In this document: one piece after another, positions 1 through 57,580 of the stretch | Layout: every line of letters begins with the position of its first letter | Numbering within the stretch: position 1 is the first letter of the stretch | Source: Tubulanus polymorphus | Lineage: Eukaryota; Animalia; Nemertea | NCBI RefSeq assembly: GCF_964204645.1 | Contig: NC_134027.1 | Location: forward strand, 17,260,560-17,324,559 | Length of the DNA stretch: 64,000 nt | Direction: 5' to 3' | Program-made: the position numbers and the translations under genes | Notes under the pieces: generated by a model | Databases searched by the model: none | What the model saw: only the letters and a program-made list of their open reading frames with translations | What the model was told of the DNA's origin: nothing

Positions 1-1472
1 TGATTCAAAATCTCCATATATTACAAATGGTACTTTATTTTTGTAATCATATTTTTGAATTCTAATATTTTATCCTTTTCATTTGGTAAAACTAATTTAC
101 AATGATCATGATTTTCACATAATTGTTCATGATTTAATAATGCACTTTCAGTTCTGAATTTATGTAAACATTTTCTACATAGATATATTTTATTATCAAA
201 ATCATTTTCTGATTTAAAAAATAAATCAATTCTTTTAATCCACATATAATGATTCTCATAATATAATATATCTATAACATCGTTTGAATCATAATCTTTT
301 GATAGGTATAAAGGTTCTAATGTATAATGTTTTATATTGTTACCTTTTGTATTTGGTAATTTGATTAAATCAAATACATTTATCTTTATATTATTATCTC
401 TTTCTATTTTTGGGATGTTTTTAATTATAACAGGATACTTATCCATCTTATAATTATTTTCAAATGGTTTATAATGAGTTTATCTAAAACTATGTTGTTT
501 AGAATCTTCAACTGGGTGTAAACAACTAATTATTGCCCATAGAAAACATTTATCATCTTCATTTTGTACATTTATAACAGCATTAGTTTTAAATGGTAGT
601 TAAATATAACTCGATGCTTCAATATCTGGTTCTTTATAATATGATACATTATTTTCATCTATTGGTTTCGATTTAGTTAACTTATTATATTTTGTGTTAT
701 AAACATGTAGTCATAAAGTCATAAATATTATTTCATCAAATATTAAACCAGACCCTTCAAAATATTTCTCTTCTATTTTAGTTTTTACTTCATTATAACA
801 TTTATCTAATTTATCATCTATATGTTGTTTAGATATAATATGTTGTGAATGAGAATTTATATTATATATTGGTTTATCTTCAGATTTTATGAATTTAACT
901 TTAGAAGATATACTTATTTTAGGATATTCAACATCAGTTATTATTTTTATTATTTCTTTCATATTTTCCAAATGTTTTTTATTTTCTTCTAACGTTTTTC
1001 CTTTATGAAATTTAAACTCAATAGCTGCTGGGCCAATATCACTTTTAAATGTTTCGGTTATCTCTATATCTTTTTATTATCTAATGAATTAATATATTTT
1101 CTTACATCTTCCATGTATGGTCTTTTATTGTTTAATTTATTTTTTATGCTTTTAATTGTCTTCTGTTTCTTATCATTATCTTTATCAAAATAATCTTCAC
1201 CTAAAATATCATTATTCTTATTTCTAATATGACTTTTAGATTTTAAATGTTCATTATAATATCTTTTATCACTGAATGATTGATTACATGTATCACATTT
1301 GTATGTTTCATTTTCATTCTTTAATTCATCTAATTTAGTTTCTAATATATCATCTTTATATTCTAGTTTCAATTTATTCTATAAATGTGTTTTAGTTTTA
1401 TTGTGTCTTGATTTTTTAGGATTTATCTATATTGACATTACATGTTGGGCAGTAGTACTTATTTGCTTCCAT
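1..1472 (-). pseudogene. N-terminal part of Polinton protein-primed DNA polymerase B (zinc fingers, terminal-protein region, vOTU-like segment), broken by stops and frameshifts
   Basis: ORF pieces 1064-1372, 711-971 and 21-446 align colinearly with 34282-36246; ATG at 1472 (MEANKYYCPTC). Confidence 0.85.
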
Positions 1473-1703
1473 TTTAATACTAAATTATTTTTTAAATTGA
1501 TTTTAGAAGTTCAATGATTTAAATATGAATTATTTCAATCACACTTTACTAACACTTTTAATGTTTAAAAATCTAACTCATACAAATATAAATATTGAAA
1601 TAATGTTTAAAATATATCTATGTATCTATTCTATAAGAGCTTACACTTTTATATTGAATAATCTGTCAATTTATATGTTATTCATCTATATGAATATTTT
1701 AAG

Positions 1704-2112
1704 AGTAATAGGGGTTTAGTTGGTTCAGGTTAAAGGTTGAATGGTCGAGTTCATTAAAAGATAAATATTAAAAGTAATTTAAAACTATAATATATTTTCA
1801 TAGCCGTGTGTATTTCAGTTGAATAATAGAATAATTATTATTATTAAAATATATTTGATTATATGAATTTGTGTATTGTAAATAAATCAATTGGTCGCGG
1901 AGCGGAGCGGTAGCGAAGTGGAGCGACCAATTGATTTAATACAATATGCATTTAAAATTTAAATTATTCATATCTTAGAATGAATATTTAGTTATAATAT
2001 AAAATGCACACGGCTATGAAAATATATTATAGTTTTAAATTACTTTTAATATTTATTTTTAATGAGCTCGACCGTTCGACCTTTGGCTTGAACCAACTAA
2101 ACCCCTATTACT
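1704..2112. repeat. 409-bp terminal inverted repeat (hairpin) of Polinton fragment A1
   Basis: AGTAATAGGGGTTTAGTTGGTTC...GAACCAACTAAACCCCTATTACT; arms pair inward to AAATCAATTGGTCGC / GCGACCAATTGATTT around a GC-rich loop at about 1899-1922. Confidence 0.95.
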
Positions 2113-2653
2113 AATGGTCTATTTGCCGTAACCCGACCGACCAAGCTTCAAAGGTACCGAGTGGTGAAAACGTCTTTCTGGGATTCATTGAAATAAAGGC
2201 GACCGACCGACCCACTGTCGATGTATGATACGTATGCTTGGAGTAGAGCGAGCATCGTGTGTAAACATGCCTTGAGGTGTGACCTAGTTAAGTTTTCTTG
2301 GAAACTGGCAGTGTTCCAATAAGCTGCCATTCACTTTTAGTGACTATATTGAAGCTAATAATGTTATAGCGCGCTTATATTCAATGCAATGTTTCATTTT
2401 GCACGCAGATGTCTTTACGATAAAGAATCTTTTAGATGACCTCCGGACGAAGTAAGAATTTCAAAATTATTCTTGAACTCTAGGCAAATTATACAAATTC
2501 CTCGTGCACAACGCAGATTTGTGATATTGTTGAAAAGGTGATGAATTTGTTTTTTACCCTAAAATTTCGCAAATAAAATTCTACCTACCTACCGACTTAG
2601 CCAGGAAACTTGAGTCGGTGTTACGGCAAACAGACTATTAATTTGGGATGGCC
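2113..2653. mobile_element. MITE-like element whose left TIR is truncated by the Polinton end
   Basis: GTCTATTTGCCGTAACCCGAC at about 2117 pairs with GTCGGTGTTACGGCAAACAGAC at about 2613; the right side continues TATTAATTTGGGATGGCC with no left partner. Confidence 0.55.
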
Positions 2654-5682: not shown

Positions 5683-6594
5683 TCTAAATTACATTGAACT
5701 GCAACATCTTTATATGAATTATCATTAACTGATTCACTTTGAATTCCCGCATCTTCATTTGGAGAGACAGGGATATATCTTTTTTCTTCTACTCTGAAAA
5801 ACAATACATAGCATTCTCTGAAAGGGCAATAACGTAAGTGTAAAAATAATGTTTTATGTGAATTTTCATTATTAAAAAGTGATTGTATTTCATCTGTAAT
5901 TATTAAATGTTGATCTATATCGTCAAATGTTGTGAATTTTTTGAATTATTGTATTGAATAAGATTTTATCTTTTTCATTCGATAACTCTATCATTAGATA
6001 ATGATTTTTAAACACTAATTCAGTAATATTTTTAACTTGAAAACGAAAACGTGCAGTTTTAAACAAATCTTTAATAGGAACAAAATTTCTAATTGTAAAA
6101 TATTTTTCTAATTCATGTAAATCGATATCTTGGAACTGTAGTATCTGTTCATTTATTTATAAGTAATTTTTCTATTAAAATATGAATTATTTCACTCACA
6201 CTTTACTCACACTTTTTATATTGAAAATAAGAATTTAACGCACATTAATATAAATATTCACTGTTTTGAATATGAATTATTTCACTCACACTTTACTCAC
6301 TTTTTATGTTAAAATTGATTTTTTTATCATTCGAAATCTATATTTGATCTTATTTTTTCTAGATTATTATGCAGGACAGTAGTACTTCTTATTTGGTTCC
6401 ATTTTAATATCAAATTTCTTATTAAAATTGATTTTAGAAGTTATTCATATTCATATATATGAATATTTTAATAGTAATAGGGAATATGGGGGATCTGGTC
6501 AAAGGTTGAAGGATCGAAAAAAAAATTCGAGTGTGCGAGAATTTATTTTTCGACCTTTCGACCTTTGGCTTGAATCCCCATATTCCCTATTACT
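5683..6594 (-). mobile_element. Polinton terminal fragment A2
   Basis: Shares the subterminal motifs TATGAATTATTTCA(A/C)TCACACTTTACT and CCATTTTAATA...AAATTGATTTTAGAAGTT with A1; truncated first ORF MEPNKKYYCPA*; ends in a hairpin. Confidence 0.75.
6473..6594. repeat. 122-bp terminal hairpin of fragment A2
   Basis: AGTAATAGGGAATATGGGG...CCCCATATTCCCTATTACT with loop region AATTCGAGTGTGCGAGAATT. Confidence 0.9.
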
Positions 6595-33944: not shown

Positions 33945-34263
33945 AGTAATTAGAAGATGGCGTTTTCATACCAGAGGTCGAGAGGTCGAGACACCACTCA
34001 TCACAGCTAGGTTCTAGTGAGAACGGACGATTGCTCTGTGATGCACATATACAGTGAGTGCGCGTAACGACAACTGCGCGTGGATAGATAGATACAGTGA
34101 GTCGCTACCGAGAACGGTTATCAACGCGTGTGCTATAAATGTAGTACAGTGATTGCGTGTCAAGTGTGCTCGGATAAATAGATGCTGTGAGGCTTGGGTG
34201 AGAACGGTTAATAGCGTGCTTGTTATATACAAGGGGAAGTAATCCCCACTCATCACCACAAGT
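33945..34263. repeat. Left TIR of element B
   Basis: Reverse complement of 49701-50019 with about 8 mismatches by eye. Confidence 0.97.
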
Positions 34264-34724
34264 TATTTGTTTTCCTTATAAATGGGAGAGAATAAGACAG
34301 AACAAATTGATGTTAATGAAAATCAATATTATTGTCCATATTGTAAAAAATACATTGATAAATCTCAAAAATCGCGTCATGAAAAATCTTCAAATCATAT
34401 AAAAAATGTTATAGATTTTGAAACTTCAGAAAATTCCAATGAAAGAAAAGAACGATTAGAAAATATGAACGTGGATGAAATAAAATGTGAAGTTTGTAAT
34501 GAATTTATAGTAAAAAGGAATTATGATAGACATCTCGAATCACAAAAACACCATCAAAATTTGAGTAATAATGTTTTAGGAAAAGATTATTTCGATGATA
34601 AACCTCAAAAAGTAAAAAAACCAACTTCAAAAACTAAATCCATTTCAAATAAACCTTACATGGAAAATGTTAGAAATTATATTGATTCACTAGAAATAAA
34701 AGATACAATTGAAATATTAGAAAC

Positions 34725-35196
34725 TGTGAAGTCAATGTATATGTTATATGTAAAGTTATTTGTTTGTATAAAGTGTAACGGTAGTTGGTCGTTCTTTTGT
34801 TCGTTCTCTTGTCAGTATTCCAGTATTCTGTAGTATTGTGTTGTATTGTTGTTGTTGTCTGGTATTGTTATTTTCCCGCCTCAAAGTTTATTGGCATATC
34901 CGTTTCCGGGTTACTCCCGCATTTTGTGTGATATTTTTGGCACTTGGTCGTTGGAGCTCCTCGGAGTATCAGTGCTTGTCTGTGTGCTTGCTATATTGGA
35001 ATCTCCCTCAGTCGTCATGTAAGTTTTGTACAAATTTATATAAATTAATTATTGTAACTGTTTACAACATTTCCTACCCTTATAATATTTGTTTTTGTAG
35101 AAACGTGTAATATTCGTCGTTTGTTTTTGTCGTCGTAATTTGAAAATAAACGCATCAATGAGAAGTATCGACTGACTTCGTTTGTCATTTGCAACA
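34725..35196 (+). mobile_element. 472-bp solo LTR inserted in pPolB
   Basis: TGTG...CAACA, 5-bp TSD GAAAC (34720-34724 and 35197-35201); removing it restores EILETLRSKIGPAA, matching ETFKSDIGPAA in fragment A1. Confidence 0.88.
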
Positions 35197-38100
35197 GAAA
35201 CATTACGTAGTAAAATTGGTCCTGCAGCTATTATATTTAGATATTTTAAAGGTACAACAATAGAAGATTATAGTAAATTTAATGAAATAATAGAAGAAAT
35301 ACTTGTTTTGATAACAGATGTTGAATATCCAAAAATTAGTATAATAATTTCAAAAACGCAAATAAAAGAGAAGTTAGAAAAAGTATTTAATGACTTTAAA
35401 CGTCATATTGAAGAAAGATATTTTGAGGGTCCTGGTTTATCATTAAATGAAATTATATTTTTAGATTTAAATGTTTATAATACAAAAAGGAATAAAACAT
35501 CAAAAAGTAAAACAATGTTTAAAAATGATTCAAACTTTACAACAGAAAAGGATATTAAAGCATCATCAGCAGTAATAAATGTTCAAAATGAAGATAATAA
35601 ATGTTTTCTATGGTCAATTATTAGTTGCTTACATCCAACAGAAGATATAACACATAGTTTTAGAATAACAAATTACCGGAAATATGAAACATTATATGAA
35701 ATTGATCAATATCCAGTAACTATAAAAATGATACCCAAAATAGAAAAAATTAATAATTTAAAAATAAATGTATTCGAATTAATGCAATTACCAAATACAA
35801 AAGGTGAAAAAATTAAAGATTATACATTGGAAGCTTTATATTTAACAGAATATTATGATGATAAAAATGCTATAGATTTGTTATATTACAAAAAAGATGA
35901 AAATGAACATTATATGTGGTTAAAACAAATTGATTTATTCTTTAGAACAGAAAGTGATTTTGACAGTCATAAAATTTATCTATGTAGAAAATGTTTATCT
36001 AAATTTAGAACTGAGAATGCGTTACTAAAACATAAAGAATTATGTGATAATAAAGATTTTTGCAAATTGATAATGCCAACAGAAAAAGATTATAAATTGA
36101 AATTTACTAATCATAAATTTAAAAATATTGTTCCATTTGTAATTTATGGGGATTTTGAATCGGTGAATAAAGAATTAACTGATCAAGATAGAAAAGAAAT
36201 ATATAACAAAAAGCAATTATTAAAATCAATGGATAAAGGAAATTAATTAAATGAAGACACAACACACGACCCGCCAATTATAAATACAATTAAAAAAGTT
36301 CATCAAAGAGCTGCTGCTTATGGAATTTATATAAAATCAAATTATCCTGAATAATATGAAAGTCAATATATTTCTTTTAGAGGTGAAAATGTAGTTAATG
36401 ATTTTTGTGAAAAAAATGATTGAATTAGAAAGTGATTTTGCAAAATTATTAAACAAAAATAAAAGAATAGTTATGACAAAAGAAGATGAAATTGATTTTA
36501 ATTATGCAACTCATTGTAGTTATTGTGAAAAACGTTTTTATTCATTTGATAAAAAAGTTAGAGATCATGATCATTTGAATTCAAAATATCGTGGAGCTGC
36601 TCATGAAGATTGTAATTTACAAGCTAAGAAAGTTAATTTCGTACCAATATTATTTCATAATTTATCAGGCTATGATACCCATCTATTTATAAAACAATTA
36701 TCGGGAAAATAGGGCGCAATTAATCAAGAAATAGAAGAATATAATGCTATGAATGGTGTAAATGTAAGAAAATATGATTTTAAACTATTAGCTAAAACAT
36801 CTGAAAATTATATTTCATTTCAATTTGGTTGCATTAGATTTTTAGATTCTTATAGATTTCTAGCAAGTTCATTAGATAATTTATCAAAAAGTTTAGTTGA
36901 TAATGATTTTGTTATAACTCGATATTATTACCCAAATGCACAAGATTTTAAATTATTGAGATATAAATGTGTAATTCCTTATTCATTTTATAAAACACAC
37001 AATGATTTTAATGTAACAGAATTATTAAAAGATCAATTTTATGATCAATTAAAAGAGGAGTATGTGAAAGATGAAGTGTTTAATAGAACATTAAATATTT
37101 GGAACCATTTTAAGATGAAAAATCATGGTGAATTAGTTGATTTATATTTAAAATCAGATGTTATGATATTGGCTGACATATTTGAAAAATTTAGAGAAGT
37201 TAATTTAAATCATTTTAATGTTGATCCTTGTTATTGCTACTCTAGTCCTGGTTTAACCTGGCAATGTGGTTTAAAATATACTAACGTAGAATTAGATTTA
37301 TTAAAAGAACCAGACATGGTTTTATTATTTGAAAAATCAATTAGAGGTGGAATTAGTGGTGTTATGGGAGATAGATATTTTAAAGCAAATGATGAATATA
37401 AATTATTATATATTGACGCCAATAATTTATATGGTTGGGCAATGATGCAACCTCAACCATACAAAAATTTTATATTGACAGAAGTTGAAAATGATGATAA
37501 AACTGATTGGGAAAGCGCAATTGCGAGTTTAAAAGATGAAGCACCAATTGGTTATTTCTTTGTAGTTGATTTAGAATATCCTGAAAATATAAAGTTTAAA
37601 ACAAGAAACTTACCTTATTGCCCAGAACATTTAACCGTAGATGATAGTTATTTAAGTGAATACCAGAAGAAAATAAAACCGAAAGATCATGTTTTTACAG
37701 AAAAATTAATACTTACTCAAAATAATAAATACAATTATATTGTTCATTATAGAATGTTGAAATTTTATCTAAAACAAGGAATGAAATTAAAGAAAGTACA
37801 TAGATATATTGAATTTAATCAATCGAAGTGGTTAGAAAAATATATAGATTTCAATACTCAACAGAGAACCATATCAAAAACAGATTTTGAAAAAGATGTC
37901 TTCAAATTAATGAATAATAGTTTTTATGGTAAAACATGTGAAAATATTAGAAATAGAAATGATATTGAATTAGTAAATAATTCTGAAAGATTAAGACATT
38001 TACAATCAAGTCCTAGACATTTAGGAAATAAAAGATTTGAAGATTATTTAACAGCAGTTAAATTAAAAAGAACGTCAATGAAATTTAATAAACCTATATT

Positions 38101-38209
38101 CATTGGTTCAACTGTTTTAGAAGTATCAAAATTATTAATGTATGATTTTTATTATAATGTTTTACAACCACTTTTTGGGGAAAAGCATATTGAAATATTA
38201 TATTTTGAT

Positions 38210-39284
38210 TCTGTAACAGCTGACACCCCAATATTATAAAAATGTAATGATAAAATATTGATAAGAAGAATTTCAGAAATAATTCCAAAACAAAATGAAT
38301 GTTATATTTCATATGGTGAAAAAGAATTAATACAAATAAATGGATAATTGGATGTTTGGACAAGAAATGGATGGAAAAAATTAAAGAATATTATTAGGCA
38401 TAAAACAAATAAGAAAATCTATAGAGTTAGAACTAAATTAGGGTTTGTACATGTTACAGAAGATCATAGTTTAATTAAACGAAATGGCGATGAAATAAAA
38501 CCAACTGATATAAAAATTGGAGATGAATTATTACATAAAAGATTTTTCCAAAGAATGAATCATATGTCATTTGATAAAATAATTGATAATATTTATAATA
38601 TAGAACCTGAAACATTAGAAGAAAAAGAATATTTTATCAAAGGATTTTTTATGGGAGATGGTTCAGCAGGTGTGTATAAATATGTTTGGGGTAATAAATA
38701 TTGTTGGTATTTATGCAATCAAGATTTGATATTATTAGAAAGAATAAAGAAATATTGTGAAGAAGTTTATCCAAATAAAACATTTAAAATCATGGATGTT
38801 ATGAAATCATCAGCAGATTATAGAATACTTGTAAATAATCCTAAAGATTTTGCTATAAAATATAATGATGAATTCTATATTCATGCAATAGTGAAAAGTA
38901 CTTCAACTAAATACTTCAACTAAAGAAAAGATAGTTCCAGATTATGTATTAAATGCAAAAAATAATTTAAGAAAATGGTTCTTCATTGGATTCTACGCAG
39001 CAGATGGTGCTAACAAATTTACAAAGGATAAAAAGAGAACCTTTGCACAGAAAGGAAAAGTTGCTATATCAGGGTTAAATATATTATGTAATTCATTAGG
39101 CTTCAATATGAATATTGGATTGATTAAATCTAAACCAAATTGCTTTAATTTAAGCCACACAGAAAAAGATTTAACTGAAGAAGTTAAAGATTTATTTGAA
39201 ATATATAACCCAACAGATTATGTTTATGATTTATCAACTGAAGATGGTACATTTAAATGTGGATTTCCATTAATTTGCTTCAAT
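38210..39284 (+). mobile_element. Intein with LAGLIDADG homing endonuclease, inserted in pPolB motif C (degenerate)
   Basis: Block A SVTADTPIL after YFD; block B VTEDHSL; block C GFFMGDG; block E GFYAADG; block F YVYDLST; terminal Asn before TDS. Two in-frame stops and a 13-bp duplication. Confidence 0.95.
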
Positions 39285-39736
39285 ACTGACAGTTACATAC
39301 TAAAAATCAAGACAAATGACATAACAAAAGACTTAAAAACATTAAAACATCGTTTTGATTTTAGCAATTATCCCAAAGATCATGAACTATTTAGCAATGA
39401 TACTAAAAAGATTCCTGGTAAATTTAAAGATGAATTAGGGGGTGATGAAATGATTGAATTTGTTGGGATAAGAAGTAAAATGTATAGTTATAGAACAAAA
39501 GATCATGAAGCTAAAAAGTTAAAAGGAATAACAAAACATGTGGTTGATAAACATATAGAATTTCAAGATTATATAAAGTGTTTATATAAATCAATTGTAA
39601 TGAAACATAAAATGAATTGTTTAAGATCAGAAGATCACGAGATGAACATTAATGAAGTTTAAAAATCTAGTTTGAATCCATTTGATGATAAAAGGCATAT
39701 TTTAGATGATGGTATAAAAACATTACCTTATGGTTA

Positions 39737-41074
39737 TTAAAACATAAAATCAATATCATCATACTCGAAATCACTATTGGTTTCTTCATTTTCATTTAAT
39801 TGTTCTTGTATAATTTGTTTAGGTTCTTCCATTTCATTTTTCTCATTTAAATAACGTGTTATATTGTGCCACATTTCATCTCGCTCTCCTTGTTTCTTTT
39901 TGTTTGTTAATTCATCAAATGGAATTATAATATCTATGTTTAAATAATTTACAATCTTATTTAAAAAGAATTCATAATTAATTGAATCTGTTATTCTATT
40001 TTCCAAATGATACATTAATATTTGTTTGAATATTTTTTTTATATTTTCCATATCTTCTTCTGTTAATTTAGGTTTTTCATAATAATCGTTAAATAATAAA
40101 TGTAAATACATTTTCTTTTGTTTTGTCTTTTGTTTTGTGTTAAATGTTGATGGAATAATTGTTTTCATTATATCTTTTTTAGTTATTTCACCATTTTTAT
40201 TTTCTATCATTTTAATTTTTTCAAGCGATTGCATATATTCTGGTGTATGATCTTCTATAGAAAATATTTTAAAGATTTCATCTAGATAATTTAATTTTGG
40301 TTCTATGAGAAAATCTCTAGTTTTTTCATCACCCCATAAATTCTTTTGCCATCCAAATTCATTACAAAATAACACAGTACCTTCTTGTCTTAAGGTCGCA
40401 TAATTACATTGTGGGCATTTTTGTTTATAATTTATTGGTTATAGATCTTCATTAAGCTCCTGGTATTTTCTTACGTTTTCTTTATGTTTTATTTTTCTAT
40501 TATGTAGATTTAAATTACTTGTTATAATAATCAATTTACAATATTTACAATAATATGTTTTTCTTGTTAATTCATTATATTGTTTTTCTAACTTTTCAAC
40601 TGTTTCTTTATTATCTGGTAACGTTTTCTCATATTTTATTTTTTCTAATATTTAATTTTTTCTTTCATTGAATTCTGCTTCAAATTTATTATAAATTTTA
40701 TCTATATGTACTTTACGAAATTGATGATTCTCCCAAGCTTCTATATTTTCAGGGCTATATTTTATTCGACAAGGCACACAGAAATGATATTTTATATTAT
40801 CCTTATCATAGAATAAGAAAGGTCTTTTCCAAATAATTTCAGGTTCAGTTTCAACAGAATTACTATTACTTTCGTTACTATCAACATTAACCGTTGTGTC
40901 ATTAATTTTACACTTCTCTGAATGTTTTTTAACATAAGTTCTTGAGAATAATTTATTACATTTTGGGCAGTTTATTTTAGGGGTTTATAATTTTCATCAT
41001 GTTTTTTCATGTCGAGCCATATTACTTTTTCTTTGAAGTTCACCATAAATTTCGCATGGTATCTTCTCATCCAT
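39737..41074 (-). pseudogene. Zinc-finger protein with C-terminal VLTF3-like (poxvirus A2-type) late transcription factor domain
   Basis: Several C2H2 fingers, then KCPQC...FCNEFG ribbon, PKLTEEDMENIKKIFKQI, SINYEFFLNKI, ERDEMWHNI; upstream part broken by stops and frameshifts. Confidence 0.65.
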
Positions 41075-41142
41075 TTATTTAGGAAAAATTTTATTAAAAT
41101 TAATTTTTAGTGATGAGCGGTAATTTTTTTATGTTATAAATA

Positions 41143-41896
41143 ATGGTAGAATTAAAAGAATACAGAATATTTAATCTAGAAAACTTACAAATTATAAATC
41201 ACATAATTTACTAGTACAATTAGATAGAGAATTTAAGAATTGTGTAGATTAAAATTAGTAAATATAAGTTTATGTAATTCTTTTTATAATGTAACGGATA
41301 AAAGTCTAGAACATTTAATTGTTTCAATCTTTTACAAAAAAATGAATAAATGGTTTTTTATATGTTCAAAACCAGGATTATATAATTAAGATACATTAGC
41401 ACAAGAAATTAATAGAAAAGCTCGAGCTAAATTAGGAAGTGATTCCGGATTTAGTATTAGAATTTTAAAAAGTGATAGTTCTAATAAAATAAAGATTAGG
41501 TAAGCTAATGACGAACAATTTAAATTTACAGTAAGAAAACCTTTAGGTAAACTGTTAGGAATTAACCCAGATATTGTTACAGCATACGCAGAGGGTAGAT
41601 CAAACTTAATACCTTACACACACTTCTATATTTATTGTAATTTAATTGATCCTACACAAACATTTGAAGCAACTAAAGATAAAACTTGCAATTCTAGTAT
41701 ACTAAATATTTTACCATTAAAAAATGTTAAACAATTTGGAACTCAAATAAATTATAATGTTACAGAATGTGATTTTAAACCTTGCATTCCGCATTTCAAT
41801 AATTTCAAATTAGAAATAAGAAATCATAATGGTTATTTAATTGATTTGAATAACTTTCCTGTGATATATGAATTAGTTATAAGATGTAAAGAGTAA
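41143..41896 (+). pseudogene. Putative minor capsid (penton-like) protein
   Basis: NSFYNV, KPGLYN, LGKLLG, FYIYCNLID, SILNILP, LEIRNHNGYLIDL...YELVIR: pattern typical of Polinton minor capsid proteins; internal stops. Confidence 0.6.
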
Positions 41897-41913
41897 TTTT
41901 TTTCACTATATAA

Positions 41914-42273
41914 ATGAATATAACTGTTGGACCGAGTATATGTTTTGGATTTGATTTTAAACGTGAGAAAGAAATGAAATTTAACATTAATGATGTAATT
42001 ACACATATTAAAAATATTGCATTTTCTAATGAAACAACATTTGAGTATGAAAAAACAATAGATAAAGAAACTTTAAATGTAGAAAAGATTACTAATTTAA
42101 TTAGAGAATCTTTAAGATTTTATGAATTAGATGAAGATTTTATCATAGATGATATTAAAAACATATTAACCAAAATATATGATAATCATAAAAGTAGTAA
42201 TGAAATAAATGTTCAATCAATCATCACTAAGATAACTAAATATTTTGAAGATTGTAATTTTTTTGATAAATAA
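41914..42273 (+). CDS. Polinton hypothetical protein, 119 aa
   Basis: Open ORF starting in TAAATG; its stop overlaps the next TAAATG. Confidence 0.6.
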   Translation: MNITVGPSICFGFDFKREKEMKFNINDVITHIKNIAFSNETTFEYEKTIDKETLNVEKITNLIRESLRFYELDEDFIIDDIKNILTKIYDNHKSSNEINVQSIITKITKYFEDCNFFDK

Positions 42274-42495
42274 ATGAGTGATAATAAGTGGATAATAACT
42301 GGATTATATAATGGAGCATTACTATCAGTTTGAACTGTTGGTTATTCCATGGTATTAAAAAAAGTATTTAAAATGGGAAGTGTTAATGTTGATAGATTTG
42401 ATATAAATGATATCTTAAAATTAACATTAGCAGTTACTTTATCCAATTTAACTATTGATTATTTGGAAAAACAAAAATATATTCCTCCCATATAA
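42274..42495 (+). pseudogene. Small hydrophobic Polinton protein
   Basis: TAAATG start, one internal stop, ends YLEKQKYIPPI; homolog at about 58348-58507. Confidence 0.55.
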
Positions 42496-42519
42496 AAGTG
42501 TAATTATTTTACTAAATAA

Positions 42520-42942
42520 ATGGCTTCTGCAATTATAACTATTATAGGATCGGCAATTGTTAACGCTTTAGCATTTACTGGTGGTGGATATTTATTTAAG
42601 CACATTGATAAAAATGGATCATTAACAGAACAAAAAAGACATAACTTAGCATTAGAGAAATACCATAAAGCAGCAGAAGAATATTGAGTAAATAGGCAAA
42701 ACTATATGGATTATATTAACAAGGAATTATATGATCAGAAGATTTCACATAGAGATTTTCAATCAGTCGATGATGCAATGAGTTTATATAACGCGGTAAC
42801 CAATAAAGAAAAATTACATCTACATAAACCTACAATATCAGATTATTATACCCCAAGTAAAGAACAACAGAAATATGAAATAATATGGATTTTAGGTGGA
42901 ACAGTTATTGTTATATTTGTAGCATATAGATTTACTAATTAG
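42520..42942 (+). pseudogene. Small protein with hydrophobic N-terminus, coiled coil and C-terminal TM segment
   Basis: MASAIITIIGSAIVNALAFTGGGYLFK...EQKRHNLALEK; one internal stop; homolog at 58528-58950. Confidence 0.7.
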
Positions 42943-42960
42943 TAATTTTTTTCTAAATAA

Positions 42961-43395
42961 ATGGAAGATAAAGTTGATAATATTGATATCATTCCTCATG
43001 ATATAAATAAAACTAAATTAAAAACATATTTAGAAAAACAAATATTAGAATTTGAAAATGATTTAAAAGTTAAAAAGAAAAAATATTTAAAATCTAAAAT
43101 TATATATTATTTTATTATTAGTGATTCAGTTACAATTAGTTCTGTAATAACATTTCTAGCAATATTCAGTCCATTAACACCTTTAGCTATATCAATTGGC
43201 GTATTAGGATTATCATCAAGTGTATTAACCAGTATAAGTTCAAAATTAAATATAAAAAGTAATAAAGAAAAAATTAAAACTAATATAAAAGAAATTAATA
43301 AATTAAAGAATACACTAGATTATATAATAAGTTTAAATGGCCATATAACAGCTGCAGAACAAGATAAATTATTGAAAGAATTAGTTAATTATTAA
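42961..43395 (+). CDS. Coiled-coil protein with two hydrophobic segments
   Basis: Open 144-aa ORF with TAAATG start; homolog at 60697-61130. Confidence 0.75.
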   Translation: MEDKVDNIDIIPHDINKTKLKTYLEKQILEFENDLKVKKKKYLKSKIIYYFIISDSVTISSVITFLAIFSPLTPLAISIGVLGLSSSVLTSISSKLNIKSNKEKIKTNIKEINKLKNTLDYIISLNGHITAAEQDKLLKELVNY

Positions 43396-43411
43396 TATTT
43401 TAATTATATAA

Positions 43412-44677
43412 ATGGTAGATAGTTTTCCAAAAGCTTTCCAATATAATAAATCAATTAAATATAAAATTCCTGCAATAGATTTTAATAAAGATATTTCATA
43501 TAGAAATGAAGATTTGAATTCATTAATTGATTTATATATTTATGTTACTGAAAGTAATAATTTTCATGGAAAGAAGGAAAATATATTTCATGTGTATACA
43601 ATTAATTTCAAAAATTTAAATGAGGCAGAACAATGGTTATTAAAATCTAATATGAAGTATTGGCAGAACCAATTAAATTTTGCTGTTTATTGCGCAACAA
43701 CAGGATGTGGAATTAGTTGGAATGATCATTTAAACAAACCAAGTTTACCATTAATTTTATCACTTTTTAGATTTCATACGTATTTTCAAATAAAATTGAT
43801 ATTAGATGAATTAGAATGTCCTTTACCAGGTTCAAAATATTTTAAAGAATTGAATAATAATATTAATTTTTCTAAGTTTTATAAAATATGTAATGAATTT
43901 AATATTAATTCAAATAAAGATTTTAGAGCAAAAATTGGTACAATGGGTGGATTAGGAATATTATATACTAAAGAATTTGGAAAAATAATGACAAATTCAG
44001 ATGTAAGAACACTGAATTGGAATGAATTACCAAAATATTATAATAATATACAACAACAAAACAATAATGGTTGGGTTAATTTCATTTTAGATAATAGTGA
44101 AGGTTTTACTAAAGCTGGTATACAAAGAATAAATCAATCTATTAGAACTTATTTGATATGTATTCTAGGTGCACAAGTTGAAACAAGATCCCCAATAATT
44201 GGAAATGATAACACTTCATTCGATGCGCAGAAACAATTTAAAGTTTTATTTGAAGATTCCATTCATAATGATAAAAATAGATCGATTCCAGAAAACATTG
44301 TGAGATATCAAAATTATTTAGATAAATCACATATTAGATTAAATTATTGTATAGGCCCTAATCTATTAATTATTTCTAATGATTTAGTACTAAAGATGGG
44401 AAACATAATTGGTTACAATAATCTAATTAAAACTGCAACAATAAATAATTCATTTGGATTAAATGATATAAATAAAAAGATTATTACTGCTCCAAAATTA
44501 ATGGAAGGCGAAAAAAATAAAAAACATATTCAATCAACAGAAACTAAAACTAAGAATATTGAATTAAATAATGATAATGATAATAATAATACTGATAATG
44601 ATAATAAATTCCATGAAAATACTAAATTAGCTTTAACCTGTATAGGAATTGTTATAGGAGGAATATTATATTTTTAA
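43412..44677 (+). CDS. Conserved Polinton protein of unknown function with hydrophobic C-terminus
   Basis: Open 421-aa ORF; YWQNQLNFAVYCATTGCGIS and GFTKAGIQRINQSIR are conserved in the homolog at 61147-63165. Confidence 0.8.
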   Translation: MVDSFPKAFQYNKSIKYKIPAIDFNKDISYRNEDLNSLIDLYIYVTESNNFHGKKENIFHVYTINFKNLNEAEQWLLKSNMKYWQNQLNFAVYCATTGCGISWNDHLNKPSLPLILSLFRFHTYFQIKLILDELECPLPGSKYFKELNNNINFSKFYKICNEFNINSNKDFRAKIGTMGGLGILYTKEFGKIMTNSDVRTLNWNELPKYYNNIQQQNNNGWVNFILDNSEGFTKAGIQRINQSIRTYLICILGAQVETRSPIIGNDNTSFDAQKQFKVLFEDSIHNDKNRSIPENIVRYQNYLDKSHIRLNYCIGPNLLIISNDLVLKMGNIIGYNNLIKTATINNSFGLNDINKKIITAPKLMEGEKNKKHIQSTETKTKNIELNNDNDNNNTDNDNKFHENTKLALTCIGIVIGGILYF

Positions 44678-44699
44678 TTTTAATTTTTTTATTATATAA

Positions 44700-46155
44700 A
44701 TGGATGTAGAAGGTGGAGAAGATATTGGAATGGATAATTTTGATGAACCCGGCATAACTGAAGAACAACCGCCTGATTTTAGTGAAACAAGTTTTAATGA
44801 CGGTAATGAGCCAGAATATAATAATAATTTAAATATGCCTGATTATATTAAAAATGCAGAATCACAATTAAATCCTGAAAATTTAGACCCAGATTTAGTA
44901 TAACAAGATTTAGATAATTTAAACAAAATACCTAAATTAGAACGAATAATTGAAAATTCTAAACTTAACATAAATGATGAAGACGTTGGACCTTTAGCAG
45001 ATCAATTAAAATTTTTAGATAATGGTAAATGGTATTATCATTTGAAAGGTGATTATTATATTGATATCACTTATAAAAATAATAAAAATAAAATATGAAC
45101 AAAATCAACTTTGAGTGATTTAGATCCAGATAGAATTAAAAGAATTAGTAATAGTAATGTAATAACTGATGTTATAAAACAAGAATTAACTGATAATGAT
45201 ATAGACGTATTTAAATAAAGAATTAATGAATTATTTGAAATAATCAAAAAGAAATCAGAAACAGAAACAACTTCTGAACAGAATATAACTTCCTAAACTA
45301 GTAAACTTAAATCAAATAAAGTTCCAATTGAAAAACTTTTACCGAATGGATTAATTGATGCAACAGATCAAGAATTAGAAGATTTAAATAATATATTTTC
45401 TGTTGAAGCAATTAGAGAAATTAAAAGTATAAGACTTGCATCTGATAAAATTTCGCATGATAAAAGTATAAGATATTTTAAAATTAGAACTTTAGAAAAA
45501 GAATTAACTGATAAAAATAAAGAAATAGAACAATTAAAGTCTGATTTAGATCATCAAGTAATTGATGAAATAGAATATAGGCAAAAAGAATTACGTTTAG
45601 AAAAAGAAAAAGATGATTTAGAATATAACATAGAATTACAAAAAGTAGAAATAAAATTATTGTTAAAAACATATGATTATAATATTAATAGATTAAAAGT
45701 TATTTTTAAAGATTTGTTGATTAAATCAGATTCTGAAATATCATTAAAAGATAGAATAAAGTTATTATTTAAATTAGAAGGAATAACAATTCTTTCAATT
45801 CTAACAGCTGTAACTATGTTATTTACAACAATTGGTTTAGCAATATCAAATGCTTTGAAATCTACTCCTACTCCCAATAAACCGGATAAACCCCCGAATG
45901 ATAATTCAATACAAGATAAAGTTAAAGATGGTTTAAAGAAAATATTTATGGGAACTATCTAAAAAATCTGCTGCAGCTTTACCAGGAATTATTGCATCAA
46001 TTGTTGGTTTTATATTGAAATCTGCAGGAAACATTATTAACTTTGCTGCTGAACATATTATTTTATTTTTAATTACAGTTGTAAGTGCTATTATTTTTGG
46101 GTTAGTGAATATGATATCAAAAAGATATCAAGAAAAAATAATAAAAAATAAATAA
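44700..46155 (+). pseudogene. Large acidic/coiled-coil protein with hydrophobic or amphipathic C-terminal helices
   Basis: Fragments 44700-44903 and 45660-45962, continuing AAALPGIIASIVGFILKSAG...HIILFLI; many stops. Confidence 0.6.
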
Positions 46156-46175
46156 TTAATTTTTTTGTTAAATAA

Positions 46176-47423
46176 ATGATTGGGAGTTATATAAGTCCTT
46201 CTAAGATTTCTAGAATATCTAATGCTATTAAAGCAGAAAGATCACATCATATAATTACTCATAACCCTTCTAATATTAATCCTGATGAAACTTTATATGT
46301 TAGAATTCCGAGATTAACACAAAATACTTTTTATGTTCCAAATAGTATTTATTTATCAGCCGATATAAAAGTAACTGGTCATGATAATAATTATGTTGTC
46401 GATAATGTTGGGAGATATTTGATTAAAAAATTAACTATATAGATTGGTCCAGAAACAGTTTTCTCATTAGATGATTATAATTTATTTATGCATTATAAAG
46501 ATTTATGGCTAACTAAAGAAAATAGAAATAATATGATATTTCAAGGAATCCAATCAGAAAACCATAATAAATTAAGATCAGGAGCTAAGAACGCAAAAGT
46601 AACTCGTGCCACAGATAATTTGATTAAAAAGATTTATGGAAGCAAATATAAAATTCCATTAGACTTTGAATTGATAAATAATATTGCCCCTTTATATAAA
46701 TATGTATTTCAAGGAGATATTATATTTGAGATAACATTTGCTCCTGTAAATGAAATTGTAATATCTAGCGTTGTTAAAGATATGGGTTATAAATTATCGA
46801 ATATATGTTTAGAATATGATACAGTAACTGATGAAAATATTTCAAGTATAATTCAAACTCAATACAATCAAGGATTTTCATTATTATATGATTATATTGA
46901 TAAATTTAAAACTGTAACTATTAATGCAAATGGTGAAATTATTAATGAGAATATTAACTTCCCAAGAAGATCTATTAAAGGTATATTAATATTTTTTACT
47001 ATTGCAACATATTCTAATGGCGCAATAAAGGTTGATAATTATTATAATCCTGAAATAACAAAAGTAGAAATAACTATCGAAGGAATAGCAAATAAAATAT
47101 TTTGTCAAGGAATGAGAATGATAGATCAGTGGCCAGAAATTAGAAAACATTTTATGAATGAAAAAGTGAAATCATCTGAAAATTGTAATATTAATCAAAT
47201 TGATTATTATACCGGCAATAAATATGCATTATGGTTAGATTTTAGAACAACAGAGGATAATTCATTACATGGTTCTGGGAAAAAACTACAGAACACAAAA
47301 GATGGAATACAATTATTCATGGCAAAGAAAATAGGAGACAAAAATTTTAAAATGCACATTTATATTATATCTGACGCACAATTAAATATTGTAAATTCAC
47401 AATTAGATAGTATTCAATATTAG
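46176..47423 (+). pseudogene. Putative major capsid protein (double jelly-roll)
   Basis: About 415 codons with one in-frame stop at 46440; beta-rich; NPSNINPDETLYVRIP, VGRYLIKKL, YKIPLD, YKLSNICLEYD, PRRSIKGILIFF pattern of invertebrate Polinton capsids. Confidence 0.75.
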
Positions 47424-47453
47424 AAATATAAAGTTAAAATTAAGGATATATAA

Positions 47454-47685
47454 ATGGGTGGTAAAAAAACTCCTAATACTAAAGAACAATATTTAAGAAA
47501 TTTATATTACAACCCTAAGAGTTCGGTCGCTTATTCTTCTACCAAAAATTTATGGCGTCAAGTGAAACAAGATAAATAAGATAAGATAATCCCACAAAAT
47601 TTAGTTAAATATAAAGATATAAATGAATTTATGTTAGAACAACCAACATACACAACACATAAAAAAATTGTTAGAAAATATATAT
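47454..47685 (+). pseudogene. N-terminal remnant of Polinton retroviral-like integrase
   Basis: LRNLYYNPKSSVAYSSTKNLW...INEFMLEQPTYTTHKKIVRKY; no DDE core follows. Confidence 0.7.
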
Positions 47686-47689
47686 TAAA

Positions 47690-48078
47690 CTTTAAATTTA
47701 GATAATTGTATTAAAATAGCAATAGATATTTATAAAGGATCAAATACATTATTCATTATAGATGATTGCGCAAATTTACATGATTCAAAAGTGAGAGAAA
47801 GTGAGTTATGTTATCAGGCTTTCTCTGGGAGACATTTTGGGATAACAACATGGGTTTTAAATCAAAAATATAATTCGATTGTTAAAGACTTTAGAGAAAA
47901 CATTAGATTTCTAGTTTTATTCTGCAATAAAGATAGAAAATCGATGAAAAATGCACTTGAGGAAAATGATATTATTCCACATGATTTACATAATGAATAT
48001 ATGGATAAATTGAAAAATAATAAAAGATCAAAATTACTATTTAGATTACAACACCCATTTAAATATGAATTTATTTAA
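47690..48078 (+). pseudogene. C-terminal half of A32-like packaging ATPase
   Basis: Walker B LFIIDD, SGRH, WVLNQ, FREN; no Walker A upstream. Confidence 0.8.
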
Positions 48079-48079
48079 A

Positions 48080-48355
48080 TTCAACTGGTTTGTTAATCTA
48101 GTTGAATTCTAGTAACATTCTAGTTGAATTCTAGTTATTAGTAGTTGAAACAAAAATCAAATAAAATTCAACAATATTTTAACTAGCTTGTTAATCTAGT
48201 ATAATTTTAGTTACATTCTAGTTGAACTCTAGTTATTGGTAGTTGAAACAAAAATCAAATAAAATTCAACAAGAAATAAATAAAAACAACAATATTTCAA
48301 CTAGCTTGTTAATCTAGTTGAATTCTAGTTACATTCTAGTTAAATTCTAGTTGCA
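48080..48355. repeat. Three about 100-120-bp repeats rich in CTAG and GAATTC short palindromes
   Basis: CAACTAGCTTGTTAATCTAGTTGAATTCTAGTTACATTCTAGTT repeated three times. Confidence 0.85.
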
Positions 48356-48384
48356 ACATCACAACAAATTTTTTTGTTATATAA

Positions 48385-49284
48385 ATGGGAGGTGAAAAGA
48401 AAATAAAATCTAAAAATGGTGATGTTCCAATTGAAAAAACTTAACAGAAACAAAATTAACTCCAGATGATGGTGCTTTGAATAATGTTACAACAAATAAT
48501 AATTATGAATATTATCTTTATTGTAAACATCAATTAGAAATATTAATATCATCTGGAAAATGTAAAAATTTTATCGGTAAAAATTTAACTTATAATGAAT
48601 TAGATACAATGAAATCAGATGAAATTATTAGATTATTTAAGACTTATGAAACCGCGAGAACAACTAGAATTAATGACGCGATCACAGAAAATGTAGTAAA
48701 AGGTTATAGTAAATTATGTAATTATATGCTGCCAATTCAAGAGGAAAATAGATTATATGCTGATTTGAAAAATGATTATTTAGTTATGACTGAATTAAAT
48801 AAATGGATTGGATATTTATCATTTCAATTAGGTGGATTTATGACATTATTATCAACTGGACTTATGACATTTTCAAATATTGAAAGTAAAAATATTTCTA
48901 TAATAAATGAACAAGGTGGAAGAAGTGAAGAAAAACCGAGATCACAGAAACAAATTGAATGGTCTCGGCAATTAGGAATTAAATCACAAGAATATAAAAA
49001 AGCTGTAAAAGAAAAAATAAGTAATAAAAATGTTAATAAAAATGGTGAATATTGTTATTTCTACTCCTTCTAATGATAGAATATTTGATAAATGTCAATA
49101 TTTTACAGTTGGATTTGTAATTGTATTCATTTTGATTGGGTGTAATTGGTATAAGAAATCAAATAAAATTCATGATATTAATAATTCTGAAACAACTGCT
49201 ATCAAAAATGAAAATACTTCTGAAATTCCAAAATTGATAATAAAAAAATGGATTAATATTTTAGATAAAAAGCAAAAAAAATAA
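48385..49284 (+). pseudogene. Two or more Polinton hypothetical proteins, frameshifted or fused
   Basis: TAAATG starts at 48385 and 48907; ORF pieces 48477-49073 and 49030-49284, the latter with a TM-like segment. Confidence 0.5.
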
Positions 49285-49406
49285 TTGAATATCTCACTAC
49301 TTTTGTCTATCTATGCGGGGCAATTAAATTGTCCAGATAAGTCATTTCGGATTCTAGATATCCATTATTTTTAATAATTTATTTTTTTAAATTTAATCAA
49401 CAATTT

Positions 49407-49690
49407 CTAAATCATGATGGCCATCTTCATTTTTCCATGATAGATTATTTTAAATCCTTCTAAATCTTTTAATTCCTCTGTACTCAATGAAACCCATTTA
49501 TCAGGTAAAAATACTTTAAATTCTCGCGATGTACTAACATTGCAGTAGCTTAAATTAGCTGATACTTTCTCTCCATATTTTGTTTTTATCTTTTCTAATT
49601 TCAATACTTTATGTTCAATTTCTTTTGTAACATCAACTAACTTTTTTATTTCAAATAGTTTTTTTGCTGGTTTTATTCTGTTATTTGTTG
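49407..49690 (-). pseudogene. Small basic terminal protein (TKYG...FLP family)
   Basis: KIKTKYGEKV...KVFLPDKWVSLSTEELKDL aligns with NKYGDRL...YLPDRFYGLSSEDLEEL at 57225-57566. Confidence 0.6.
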
Positions 49691-49700
49691 TTAAAAAATT

Positions 49701-50019
49701 ACTTGTGGTGATGAGTGGGGATTACTTCCCCTTGTATATAACAGGCACGCTATTAACCGTTCTCACCCAAGCCTCACAGCATCTATTTATCCGAGCACAG
49801 TTGACACGCAATCACTGTACTACAGTAATAGCACACGCGTTAATAACCGTTCTCGGTAGCGACTCACTGTATCTATCTATCCACGCGCAGTTGTTGTTAC
49901 GCGCACTCACTGTATATGTGCATCACAGAGCAATCGTCTGTTCTCACTAGAGCCTAGCTGTGATGAGTGGTGTCTCGACCTCTCGACCTCTGGTATGAAA
50001 ACGCCATCTTCTAATTACT
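49701..50019. repeat. Right TIR of element B
   Basis: Reverse complement of 33945-34263. Confidence 0.97.
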
Positions 50020-50838
50020 CGAATCCTTCAATCACGATTTATGCAAACTAAGGTGAAAACCGTTTAAATCAGTTTCCGTTCTGCTTATGTATAGACACTC
50101 TCCGGACTCGATATACAGCCGCTCGGACTGATGCTAAGGGCAGTCAATTTACTCCCGACGTGTCGTTTTATCAACATAACACTATATCAATGTTCGATAA
50201 CCAAGGAATACCTGGTCGAATCAATACCGCCCGGTGGTCACACACAAAAATCGGATCAGATCACATCAGATCGATGATTTTAAGAACCTCCTCAATCCAA
50301 ACAGATTGAAATATAGACGTAGTTGATACATACGCCGACAGATGATCGGTGCGATTACCCTCGCAACACCAACGGACCCTGTTTTGACAGGACGGAAAGT
50401 ACTCTCCACACGAGACGAGGAAAGCCCGTCCCACCTTTGCAAAAATCTAACATCCATATCGGTTCTCACCACTACCCGCCACTGTAAGGCCACGAATGTG
50501 TTGATACACACGCCATCTATCTGATTAGGCTATCACTACTATTCGCAATGACTTATAATATGGAACACTCATACACCGACGTCTGTTTATAATAAAAAGA
50601 AATAACACAATGTGTACCTCACATCTCAATATGAATTACTCAGTTTTATTTCTACTGTGAATATTAAAATTATTACATTGCTACACCCTCGTGAAACTGG
50701 CTGTGTTATTATAAGTATTATAAAATGATATTAGCATCTCTTTAGGTTAATACTAAATTGACTAGGTTAGTTAAAGTTAAAGAATTTTTATTCAAAATAT
50801 AAAGTATTCTCTTTTGAAAAGAATTGTAAAAGAAAATA

Positions 50839-51563
50839 TTAAAAATTAAAATAGAAATAATAGATTGTTGAAGATATGTAATTTTTATTAAATTTTATTT
50901 GAGATAATAAAGATTCAACGTATTGTTCATTATTCGGATCATTGTTCCATTGATCAATAAATTTCTTTGCCTTTGTTAACTGTTCTAAATATAACTGTAA
51001 ATCTAGTGTATTAAATTTTATTTTATTTTCTTTCTTTTCAGGAGGTCTTAAATTTTTCCAATTCCAAATAAGTTTTTTATTGTATTCATCATTCATGTTA
51101 AATTTAGATATCGGTAACGTATGATCAATATAAAAAAAATCTCCATAATTATCTATATTCATTTGACTATCGAATTGATATATTATCCATGATTTAAGAA
51201 ATTTATCTGTACAACCCAACAAATTAGATAGTGTTTCTGAATGTGTTTCTTTGTTGAATAATTGTGTTAATCTAGTCCTTAAACATTGTTTCAATCTGAA
51301 ATTAAGATCTGTTTGATATCTTTCTATCATATATTCTGTCATATAATCATTATAAGCTTCTCTATTATCTTCTCGATATTGTTCCGTATATAGTTTAAAA
51401 CAAGTTTTACAGCAATATTGAAAACCATCTTTGCTAATCTTACGCTTACTAAATTCTGTTGTAGCTAATTTCTTGTAGTATATATTGAACACTTCTTGTA
51501 GTATATATTGATAACACCAGTGTTATTTGTAATATTGATAGTTTGTGGTTGTTCTGGTTCCAT
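50839..51563 (-). pseudogene. HNH-like endonuclease of the type common in large DNA viruses and phages, frameshifted near the N-terminus
   Basis: TEFSK...SKDG...CKTC, FRLKQCLRTRL, LLGC...LKSWI..QF...MNIDNYG..FYIDHTLPISKF...WNWKNLRP...EN; ATG at 51563 in TAAATG. Confidence 0.75.
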
Positions 51564-53041
51564 TTATTATACATATTTTTTTACTAAATTGGTTAATATT
51601 TTAGAATCCTCTTCCATTTCTTCGACCAACGTCATCCTTTTTCATTCCTAGCTGCTTTTGATAAGTTGTTTCAGTTCCTTGATATCTAAATCCTACCACT
51701 GGGCAAAAGCGCGCATACAGGCGCACTTTTGCTTAATGCGCATGCGCTACTCATAATTGAAACGACTGAACATAAAATATCAAAACGTGTTCGCATTAGG
51801 CAAAAGCGCTCTTATAGGAGCGCGTTTGCTTAATGCGCATGCGCTAATCATAATTATATATTCATTCTGTAAATTCTGTAAAAAAGAAACAACCGGCATA
51901 AAATATTAAAACGCGTTCGCATTAGGCAAAACCGCTCTTATAGGAGCACTTTTGCTTAATGCGCATGCGCAAATCATTATTGAAACGACCGAACATAGAA
52001 CATTCACCAAGCAGATTTACACAATACATATACAAGTTGTTCAGTCGTTTCTTCCAATACATCATTTACAAACATTTACAAACATTTTTTCAATTGCCGG
52101 TAAATATTTGACTACATCAACAAATGTTAAACTTAATCATTGGAGTCTTAATGTTTTTGAAATTTTTATATAGTTTCTTCTTCGATCTTTTGTGATTCTT
52201 GTGCTTCTACACCAATTTCTATTGGTTTGTCTTCCATTGCTGTTGATTCCTCAGTCAGAAAGAGTATCTTGAGTTTCTCTATCACTTCTTGATGCGTATG
52301 ACATTTTATTAATCTAAAAGATATCAGCGGTAACTCTAATTATTTAAAAGATATACTAAATACACTTAAATATATCTAAAGGTTTCATATTTAGTAGCCC
52401 CCAATAACTACAAAAAAACAGTACTTACATTTAGATTTAGAACTGTAAACTATAAACTCCTAATTGCGTTTCGAGAGATAGAATATATCCTAAGCGTTAT
52501 GTTACATCATCTATTCAGTTCCGGTGCGATTTCTAGAATGAACACGTCTGCGATTATGACACGTCATCTATTCACAGTTCCGGTACACCTTCTAGAATGT
52601 TCTACGCGTTTGCGATTATGACACGTCATCTATTCAGTTCCGGTACACCTTCTAGAATGTTCTAACGCGTCTGCAGTATTATGACTCATATGTCTCGGCG
52701 TCATAGTAACAGCTGTGACAGCTGTGAATTTATAGATTTATTCCATAGCTCTTTACATGAAATTTATATAGGCTCAAATAGAATCATGTTCTAGTATAAG
52801 CAAATGCTTTGTATTATATCATATCATGTTTATATGAATTATTTCAATCACACTTTACTAACACTTTTGATGTTTAAAAATCTAACTTATACAAATATAA
52901 ATATTGAAATATGTTTAAAATATATCTATTTATCTATTCTATAAGAGCTCGACCTCCGACCTCTGGTCTGAAAACGCCATTTTCTAATTACTTATATATG
53001 TTATTCATTTATATTTTATTCATGTATATGAATATTTTAAC

Positions 53042-57566: not shown

Positions 57567-57580
57567 AATATGTAAAATAA

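Follow-up and report, generated by a model that had tools for sequence, protein, structure and literature searches.

Strand-biased terminal hairpins at the ends of a high-copy Polinton lineage in Tubulanus polymorphus

The fold-backs found in a 64,000-bp stretch of Tubulanus polymorphus DNA (the window) are confirmed as the genuine termini of a Polinton lineage present in many copies, and the mismatches fixed in them indicate that selection has quite probably favoured the folding of one strand, the one whose 3' end lies at the terminus. This selection for folding is better supported than the exact use to which the fold is put. The model of Polinton excision and replication rests on the pairing of two distant TIRs, and a model of Polinton replication was reportedly proposed in a 2006 paper. 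Here, a single genome contains two lineages that share a capsid-like module (85-91% DNA identity) and differ in polymerase, integrase and end structure, plain in one and folded in the other. Hundreds of copies show which end positions must stay (AGTAAT, CAAAGGTCGA, GGTCGA), which may vary and which strand must fold, and the mode of priming and the recognition of the ends by the integrase become testable with short oligonucleotides. Terminal palindromes are also extended from protist elements, mostly without pPolB, to a pPolB Polinton.

Results

Three Polinton fragments of the window end in fold-backs at exactly the coordinates given by the initial annotation, 1704..2112 (409 bp), 6473..6594 (122 bp) and 53042..53251 (210 bp), all unstranded, and the fixed asymmetry of the arms that it described, AAAGGTTGAA in the inner arm and CCAAAGGTCGAA in the outer arm, is present in all three. 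Their DNA folding z-scores range from -9 to -29 (12 dinucleotide shuffles each). Polinton interior was found behind each inner arm of the window, and none was found in the window sequence beyond the outer arms of the three hairpins. A Polinton of 5,090 bp with an internal deletion ends on its right in the 409-bp hairpin; the left outer arm of this element is at L071:7023, upstream of the window. The inner arm of the hairpin (1704..1753, + strand) carries C-to-T type changes in the end motifs with retention of G-T pairing, and its outer arm (2063..2112, - strand), which is the true terminus, consists of AGTAAT, a variable spacer, CAAAGGTCGA and a second motif, GGTCGA. It is followed by the target site duplication (TSD) AATGGT (2113..2118, + strand), which is the same at the left end in L071. 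The remaining TIR and the 5' part of the pPolB gene, which is broken here, occupy 1..1703 on the - strand, with a start at 1472, zinc fingers and a terminal-protein domain. The 122-bp hairpin adjoins Polinton interior at 5754..6472 (unstranded), and the 210-bp hairpin, whose stem is partly deleted, adjoins interior at 50824..53040 (unstranded) with an HNH/endonuclease VII-like ORF. The fourth fragment (57067..57127, - strand) does keep an inner arm, as had been claimed, but it is not of the same subfamily: it starts with AGTAATTG, has AAAGGTTGAG and abuts a LINE RT ORF (56002-57066) that replaces the outer half, the Polinton interior lying at 57141..58954 (+ strand).

An additional, inward-pointing terminus of the plain type (52950..52992, - strand) was observed 49 nt inside the inner arm of the 210-bp hairpin. 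Such a third terminus, 49-53 nt inside the inner arm, occurs in 5 of 128 hairpins (the window copy, L001, L035, L060 and L102) and is either the relic of an older end or a recombinant.

In a genome-wide motif search (268 Mb), inner arms adjacent to interior numbered at least 856 and arms bearing the outer motif 1,180, with 0 in the controls; a reversed pattern gave 0 matches against 545 real matches in the genome. Five elements from two separate stretches measure 15.0-19.0 kb, shorter deleted copies being present too, and four of the five have TIRs of 437-580 bp that extend well beyond the hairpin. The hairpin catalogue comprises 166 hairpins of 88-462 bp. The script had detected 168 in the fetched loci, of which two entries at L090 that joined arms of different elements were dropped, and the orientation of L138 was set by hand. 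The catalogue is a non-random sample: loci were picked by motif among the first-listed places, mostly on contigs C1-C3, an unusual inner motif having guided the choice of 30 of them. Raw DNA reads from another sample (about 12% of one run) cover the whole hairpin, and in the same reads the flanks of the terminus are mixed (agreement 0.37 and 0.34).

The initial annotation had asked whether the hairpin is present at both ends of complete copies and whether a 6-bp TSD abuts the outer ACT, and both are the case. Of 56 candidate end pairs, 11 without a complete hairpin were excluded, and the 45 scored pairs divide into 40 with an exact 6-bp TSD, two with a one-base difference and three with no TSD. 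In most TSD pairs the left and right ends are 91-100% identical. Exact TSDs also flank L117/L118, although the inner arm is absent at both ends, and some elements of the hairpin lineage have no inner arm at either end, their TSDs still being present. The reading of the hairpins as independent MITEs, each with its own TSD and unlinked to Polintons, was examined and is rejected, since 0 of the 168 hairpins shows a TSD of its own and the palindromes are the ends of larger elements. Symmetric outer-outer palindromes (40-220 bp between motifs) number three genome-wide, one of which has its own TSD.

Unlike left and right hairpins were seen despite an exact TSD at L065/L066 (266/408 bp), L027/L141 (409/188) and L177/L178 (170/270). 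At L224:1475-1740 lies a solo hairpin with the TSD TATTTC, comparable to a solo LTR; it is best read as the outcome of a crossover between the left outer and the right inner arms, which are direct repeats, and so as a deletion product. The flanks of 164 termini reveal a target preference, within the TSD, for A at position 2, a pyrimidine at 3, a purine at 4 and T at 5.

Flip-flop of the hairpins as a regular state is also rejected. Among the 166 hairpins a single one is flipped (L199), and the interior-adjacent arms of the genome are 856 of the inner type versus 39 with the outer C, one of these 39 being a true outer arm. One hairpin of the 166 (L042) has TIR interior on both of its sides.

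The G-T mismatches that had been noted, mostly on one strand, are confirmed, and the strand is the one with its 3' end at the terminus. At positions 25-52 of 164 hairpins, the 3'-terminal strand bears 664 G-T, 133 G-A, 34 C-T, 25 A-C and 43 other mismatches, counts that are not independent because the copies share ancestry. This strand folds lower in 162 of the 166 hairpins, by a mean of 7.8 kcal/mol; G-T and tandem G-A are the more stable mismatches, a property that is also built into the energy model. Post-insertion noise was stripped by counting the differences common to both ends of 39 TSD-verified pairs, which are 165 G-T, 24 G-A, 5 A-C, 5 C-T and 5 other. The distinct transition site types among them are 16 G-T versus 2 A-C (p=0.0007 if independent), and those of G-A versus C-T are only 3 versus 2. 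Past position 52, the recurrent stem mismatches are nine G-T (three of which are one homologous site), one A-C and three other. Full pairing of positions 25-28 is seen in 143 of 155 hairpins for the 3'-terminal strand and in 1 of 155 for the other (shuffle mean 95), one inner sequence forming wobble pairs there with four outer variants. Both end motifs are intact in 132 of 155 outer arms versus 1 of 155 inner arms. The changes that create the mismatches of the inner arm also destroy its end motifs, and three CpG sites have become fixed in the inner arm as TpG, not as CpA. Every G-T site could alternatively stem from a one-strand C-to-T mutation. The strand-specific G-T and G-A pairing supports the selected secondary structure that had been put forward at the outset.

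The sequence next to the ends had been described as different between copies and mirrored within each copy. The mirroring within hairpins stands: at positions 11-20 the arms of 155 ungapped hairpins match in 1512 of 1550 cells, for shuffle maxima of 1084 overall and 1183 within loop class. The copy-by-copy covariation does not, the arm positions 1-24 being mirrored by lineage and private changes being unmirrored; the arms differ at positions 8-23 in 46 of the 166 hairpins, the copy at 6473 included. A homogenisation of each copy after its insertion is thereby rejected. Fourteen mirrored spacer types account for 120 of the 166 hairpins; the commonest is combined with every one of the six loop classes, and eight spacers are found with the long loop. 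Both arms thus change jointly while the loop between them stays, so that a single crossover is insufficient, and a few hairpins bear two different common spacers. At L225, a reverse copy of outer positions ~60-16 lies inside the inner arm, after which the sequence returns to the inner arm; this one case points to a double template switch, which would leave such a pattern. For the terminal spacer, the arm homogenisation by template switching proposed in the initial annotation is supported both by the shuffling of spacers across loop types and by L225. An obligatory rewriting of positions 1-24 in each cycle is weakened by L161/L162, where the identical inner/outer difference is kept at both ends. 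We infer an occasional copying from arm to arm during replication, neither after insertion nor in every cycle. Between AGTAAT and the CARAGG motif lies a hypervariable spacer of nearly fixed length, whose modules are common to the plain and hairpin lineages.

The sister lineage, of which the window holds a complete copy (33945..50019, unstranded; 327-bp TIRs without hairpin, TSD CGAATC), has an outer motif of the same kind, no palindrome and TIRs that do not fold; the spacer is equally variable in plain ends. Among 30 CAGAGG-type ends, 26 are plain and four bear a hairpin. The polymerase is of the sister type at all of the plain ends that adjoin a polymerase gene (13/13) and of the hairpin type at more than 60 inner-arm loci. 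Between the lineages, the polymerases are 55-75% identical, the integrases 62% and the capsid-like blocks 85-91% (DNA). Plain versus hairpin is a contrast of two lineages and no proof of function. The wider family can do without the hairpin, as 26 of the 30 CAGAGG-type ends are plain and L117/L118 moved without inner arms.

The pPolB of the plain-ended Polinton contains, in the region of motif C, an intein-like insertion (window 38213-39270) that is frameshifted in the window copy. It matches PF14890 with an E of 2e-4, below the curated cut-off, its homologues P0011 and P0031 carry PF14890 too, and it includes two motifs that we take to be LAGLIDADG-like.

Two metagenome relatives with ~80% pPolB identity carry, one, a 257-bp terminal hairpin and, the other, an inner arm at the contig end. 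The strands of the relative's hairpin fold equally (-69.5 vs -69.4), the mismatches of the first arm being 4 G-T, 1 A-C, 2 T-C and 1 A-A, and the hairpin-bearing relative P0002 has both its terminal-protein and its vOTU domain intact. A search of IMG/VR with a single protein gave no relative. When 22 of the 24 distant IMG/VR loci from an alignment search were self-compared, together with L229, TIRs were found in two and a terminal palindrome in neither, at ends that may be cut.

A Pfam survey of 37 ORFs, mostly from two elements, yielded an rve-chromo integrase (PF00665 and a chromodomain in L062 and L063), an A32-like packaging ATPase (PF04665, E 3.6e-11) and a polymerase of 1356 aa that includes an endonuclease VII domain and whose ORF has 5827 homologues. 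PF03175 (protein-primed family B polymerase) matched ORFs of L071 and of the window, and in the Pfam search the full-length 1356-aa ORF gave no PF03175 match. The model of the pPolB N-terminus (pLDDT 82) matches a Y-family little finger (Z 8.2, rmsd 2.7, 103 aligned) and a viral OTU (Z 7.4, rmsd 3.8, 108 aligned); a little-finger-like fold is followed by a vOTU domain, and the terminal-protein GSG loop and the vOTU Cys/His are retained. A terminal protein followed by a vOTU domain is the layout described for the pPolB N-terminus in the available text of 10.1101/2024.03.18.585575. Since this layout is kept in the modelled fold, protein priming is likely retained in the hairpin lineage. The endonuclease VII domain is common among pPolB homologues, and a separate HNH/endonuclease VII ORF is also present; a role of endonuclease VII as a hairpin-specific partner is unsupported, the domain being so widespread. 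Neither an HUH Rep/NS1 nickase nor an adenain-like maturation protease had a Pfam match among the 37 ORFs, several of which remain unnamed. The 415-aa capsid candidate, which we presume to be capsid-like by its likeness, has no PDB or PHROG match, and its single-sequence model has a pLDDT of 32.

The pPolB gene reads inward, and in most copies its start lies ~80-290 nt interior to the inner arm. The TIRs of L063, L066, L069, L107/L108 and L111/L112 contain the first 24-44 pPolB codons, which leaves a gene stub at the opposite end. An unnamed 113-aa ORF stands beside pPolB or the terminus (L064:4611-4949; window 57225-57563; L226, L227), with an identity of 64-97% within the hairpin lineage and of 30-34% in the plain lineage.

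Discussion

The model we propose, to which we give about an even chance, combines a selected fold of the 3' end with a protein-primed cycle. The imperfect palindrome of 88-462 bp that opens each TIR, flush with the TSD, would fold the 3' end of a single-stranded replication intermediate into a flush duplex, thereby protecting the end and re-forming the duplex origin. This local fold would stand in for the pairing between ends ~17 kb distant from each other, and priming by protein is likely to persist in the cycle. The single-stranded intermediate is a prediction, the copies being known here as integrated DNA alone. The inner arm would have arisen through snap-back copying of the terminus, because its end coincides exactly with the terminal AGT, as the run-off copying of a 5' end predicts. 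The inner motifs would then have been knocked out, and the inner arm thus disabled as an integrase end, since with a second functional end the integrase could remove the hairpin; most of the changes retained would be those that preserve G-T or G-A pairing on the 3'-terminal strand. Occasional template switching from arm to arm would re-match positions 1-24 once outer ends have recombined between lineages.

The main rival of this model is self-priming: the folded 3' end could itself prime the second strand, as in parvoviruses, with a head-to-head junction cut only at the outer ACT, which would keep one orientation, and a shortened sibling repaired from the other TIR. A 3'-OH that is paired flush, on a template that continues inward, is a natural primer and favours such self-priming, and the stable strand is indeed the 3'-terminal one. 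The TIRs of 437-580 bp reach well past the hairpin, L042 with its TIR interior on both sides has the form of the predicted junction, the same model has been proposed for the palindromes of protist virophages and PLVs, and some parvovirus termini exist in a single form. On the other hand, the terminal-protein and vOTU domains are intact, in the relative P0002 as well, no HUH family was matched among the 37 ORFs, and an endonuclease VII domain is widespread among pPolB homologues. The 166 hairpins include just one flipped hairpin (L199) and one junction (L042), a true outer arm accounts for 1 of the 39 interior-adjacent outer-C arms, L042 could be an insertion or a rearrangement, and more steps are needed to keep one orientation; self-priming thus appears possible but rather doubtful. 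In a hybrid mode, the protein-primed polymerase would also self-prime from the 3' DNA hairpin, the head-to-head junction would be resolved asymmetrically by the integrase or the endonuclease VII domain without an HUH nickase, and the wobble-coded asymmetry would mark the true end versus its mirror. We consider this combination unlikely; if true, the lineage would represent a surviving link between linear DNA viruses primed by protein and those primed by a hairpin.

The palindrome could also be a by-product of snap-back errors, selection having removed the inner end motifs only and the G-T bias resulting from the deamination of cytosines on one strand. Plain-ended and half-hairpin elements do transpose, plain ends show an equally variable spacer, and each G-T site is readable as a one-strand C-to-T change, but six loop classes of unlike sequence are all nearly fully paired. 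Methyl-deamination should yield both TpG and CpA at the three CpG sites of the inner arm, where TpG is fixed without CpA, the 5'-terminal strand would be the one exposed longest by strand displacement, from which the opposite bias is predicted, and the hairpin or the inner arm persists in two distant relatives; we find this origin improbable. The fold could matter in RNA instead, outward-reading transcripts forming G-U-rich hairpins that would serve as a source of small RNA, a decoy or a terminator: RNA too has stable G-U and G-A pairs, and the strand favoured here is antisense to pPolB, which reads inward. The palindrome ends, however, at the very last base of the element, which an RNA reading through into the flank would not need, and a role in RNA seems highly improbable. 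Least probable of these readings is a cruciform at the integrated end that would offer a junction to an endonuclease VII-type domain and so excise the element. The four-way junction would sit on the element boundary, and the enzyme could be sought in the endonuclease VII domain of pPolB or in the separate HNH/endonuclease VII ORF, but both strands would have to fold and the mismatches weaken one of them, homologues generally carry the domain, and the pPolB of the plain lineage aligns across that region.

The folding of the 3'-terminal strand in a protein-primed cycle, which remains the reading we prefer, may be set beside known systems. Polinton ends follow the AG...CT rule, and the elements studied here fit Polinton/Mavericks by their length, their TIRs with AG...CT ends and their 6-bp TSD. 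With the Polintoviricetes whose pPolB bears endonuclease VII they share a pPolB with terminal-protein and vOTU domains, an rve-chromo integrase, an A32 ATPase, TIRs, the 6-bp TSD and a size of 15-19 kb; they differ from ordinary members in the local palindrome with which each TIR opens, a sister lineage of the same genome having ordinary nonfolding TIRs. Parvovirus telomeres likewise have a 3' hairpin flush with the end (a predicted fold in our case), fixed mismatches and one orientation, and the left end of MVM is resolved asymmetrically. Unlike parvoviruses, the present elements are double-stranded and integrating, have identical hairpins at both ends and their own protein-primed polymerase, and have no recognised HUH nickase. 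Poxvirus telomeres are AT-rich, incompletely paired terminal hairpins that flip-flop; the hairpins described here are also AT-rich and incompletely paired, whereas flip-flop is absent (1/166) and the ends are integrase substrates with TSDs. Adenoviruses combine protein priming with a panhandle and ITR repair, and the left and right ends are kept alike in both (here 91-100% identical in most TSD pairs), but the Polinton ends have a second, local pairing partner inside each end.

In the literature, the available text of PMC6431247 gives Polinton/Mavericks a length of 15-25 kb, that of PMC8242256 has some parvovirus termini in one form only, that of PMC4046053 reports internal palindromes in casposon TIRs, and that of PMC4061559 states that bidnavirus ITRs form no hairpins. 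A close likeness is with the virophages and the subtype 4 PLVs of Halocafeteria seosinensis, for which the accessible part of bioRxiv 10.64898/2026.07.28.741278 describes palindromes inside TIRs beside the TSD and proposes hairpin priming. Those palindromes measure 52 nt (subtype 5) and mostly accompany non-pPolB replication genes, according to the same part of that preprint. Here as there, a palindrome in the TIR adjoins the TSD, but our palindromes are longer, the pPolB retains its terminal protein, and strand-biased mismatches are fixed, which that part of the preprint does not mention. Local terminal hairpins had at first been regarded as typical of poxviruses and parvoviruses, and terminal palindromes are already described in protist virophages and PLVs. 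The accessible portions of 10.1101/2022.05.25.493380, PMC12747079 and 10.64898/2026.10.13.758929 contain nothing on hairpin-ended pPolB Polintons, and Halocafeteria is the one precedent in the literature as searched, in the portions of sources available; an earlier note on such ends may exist elsewhere.

As to their distribution, the listed termini cluster in mid-contig on the large contigs C1-C3, for example at 12-20 Mb of the 32 Mb of C1. The window also harbours a different repeat family, with internal short repeats and inverted pairs, at 3609-3856, 5457-5690, 17633-17866 and 21182-21415.
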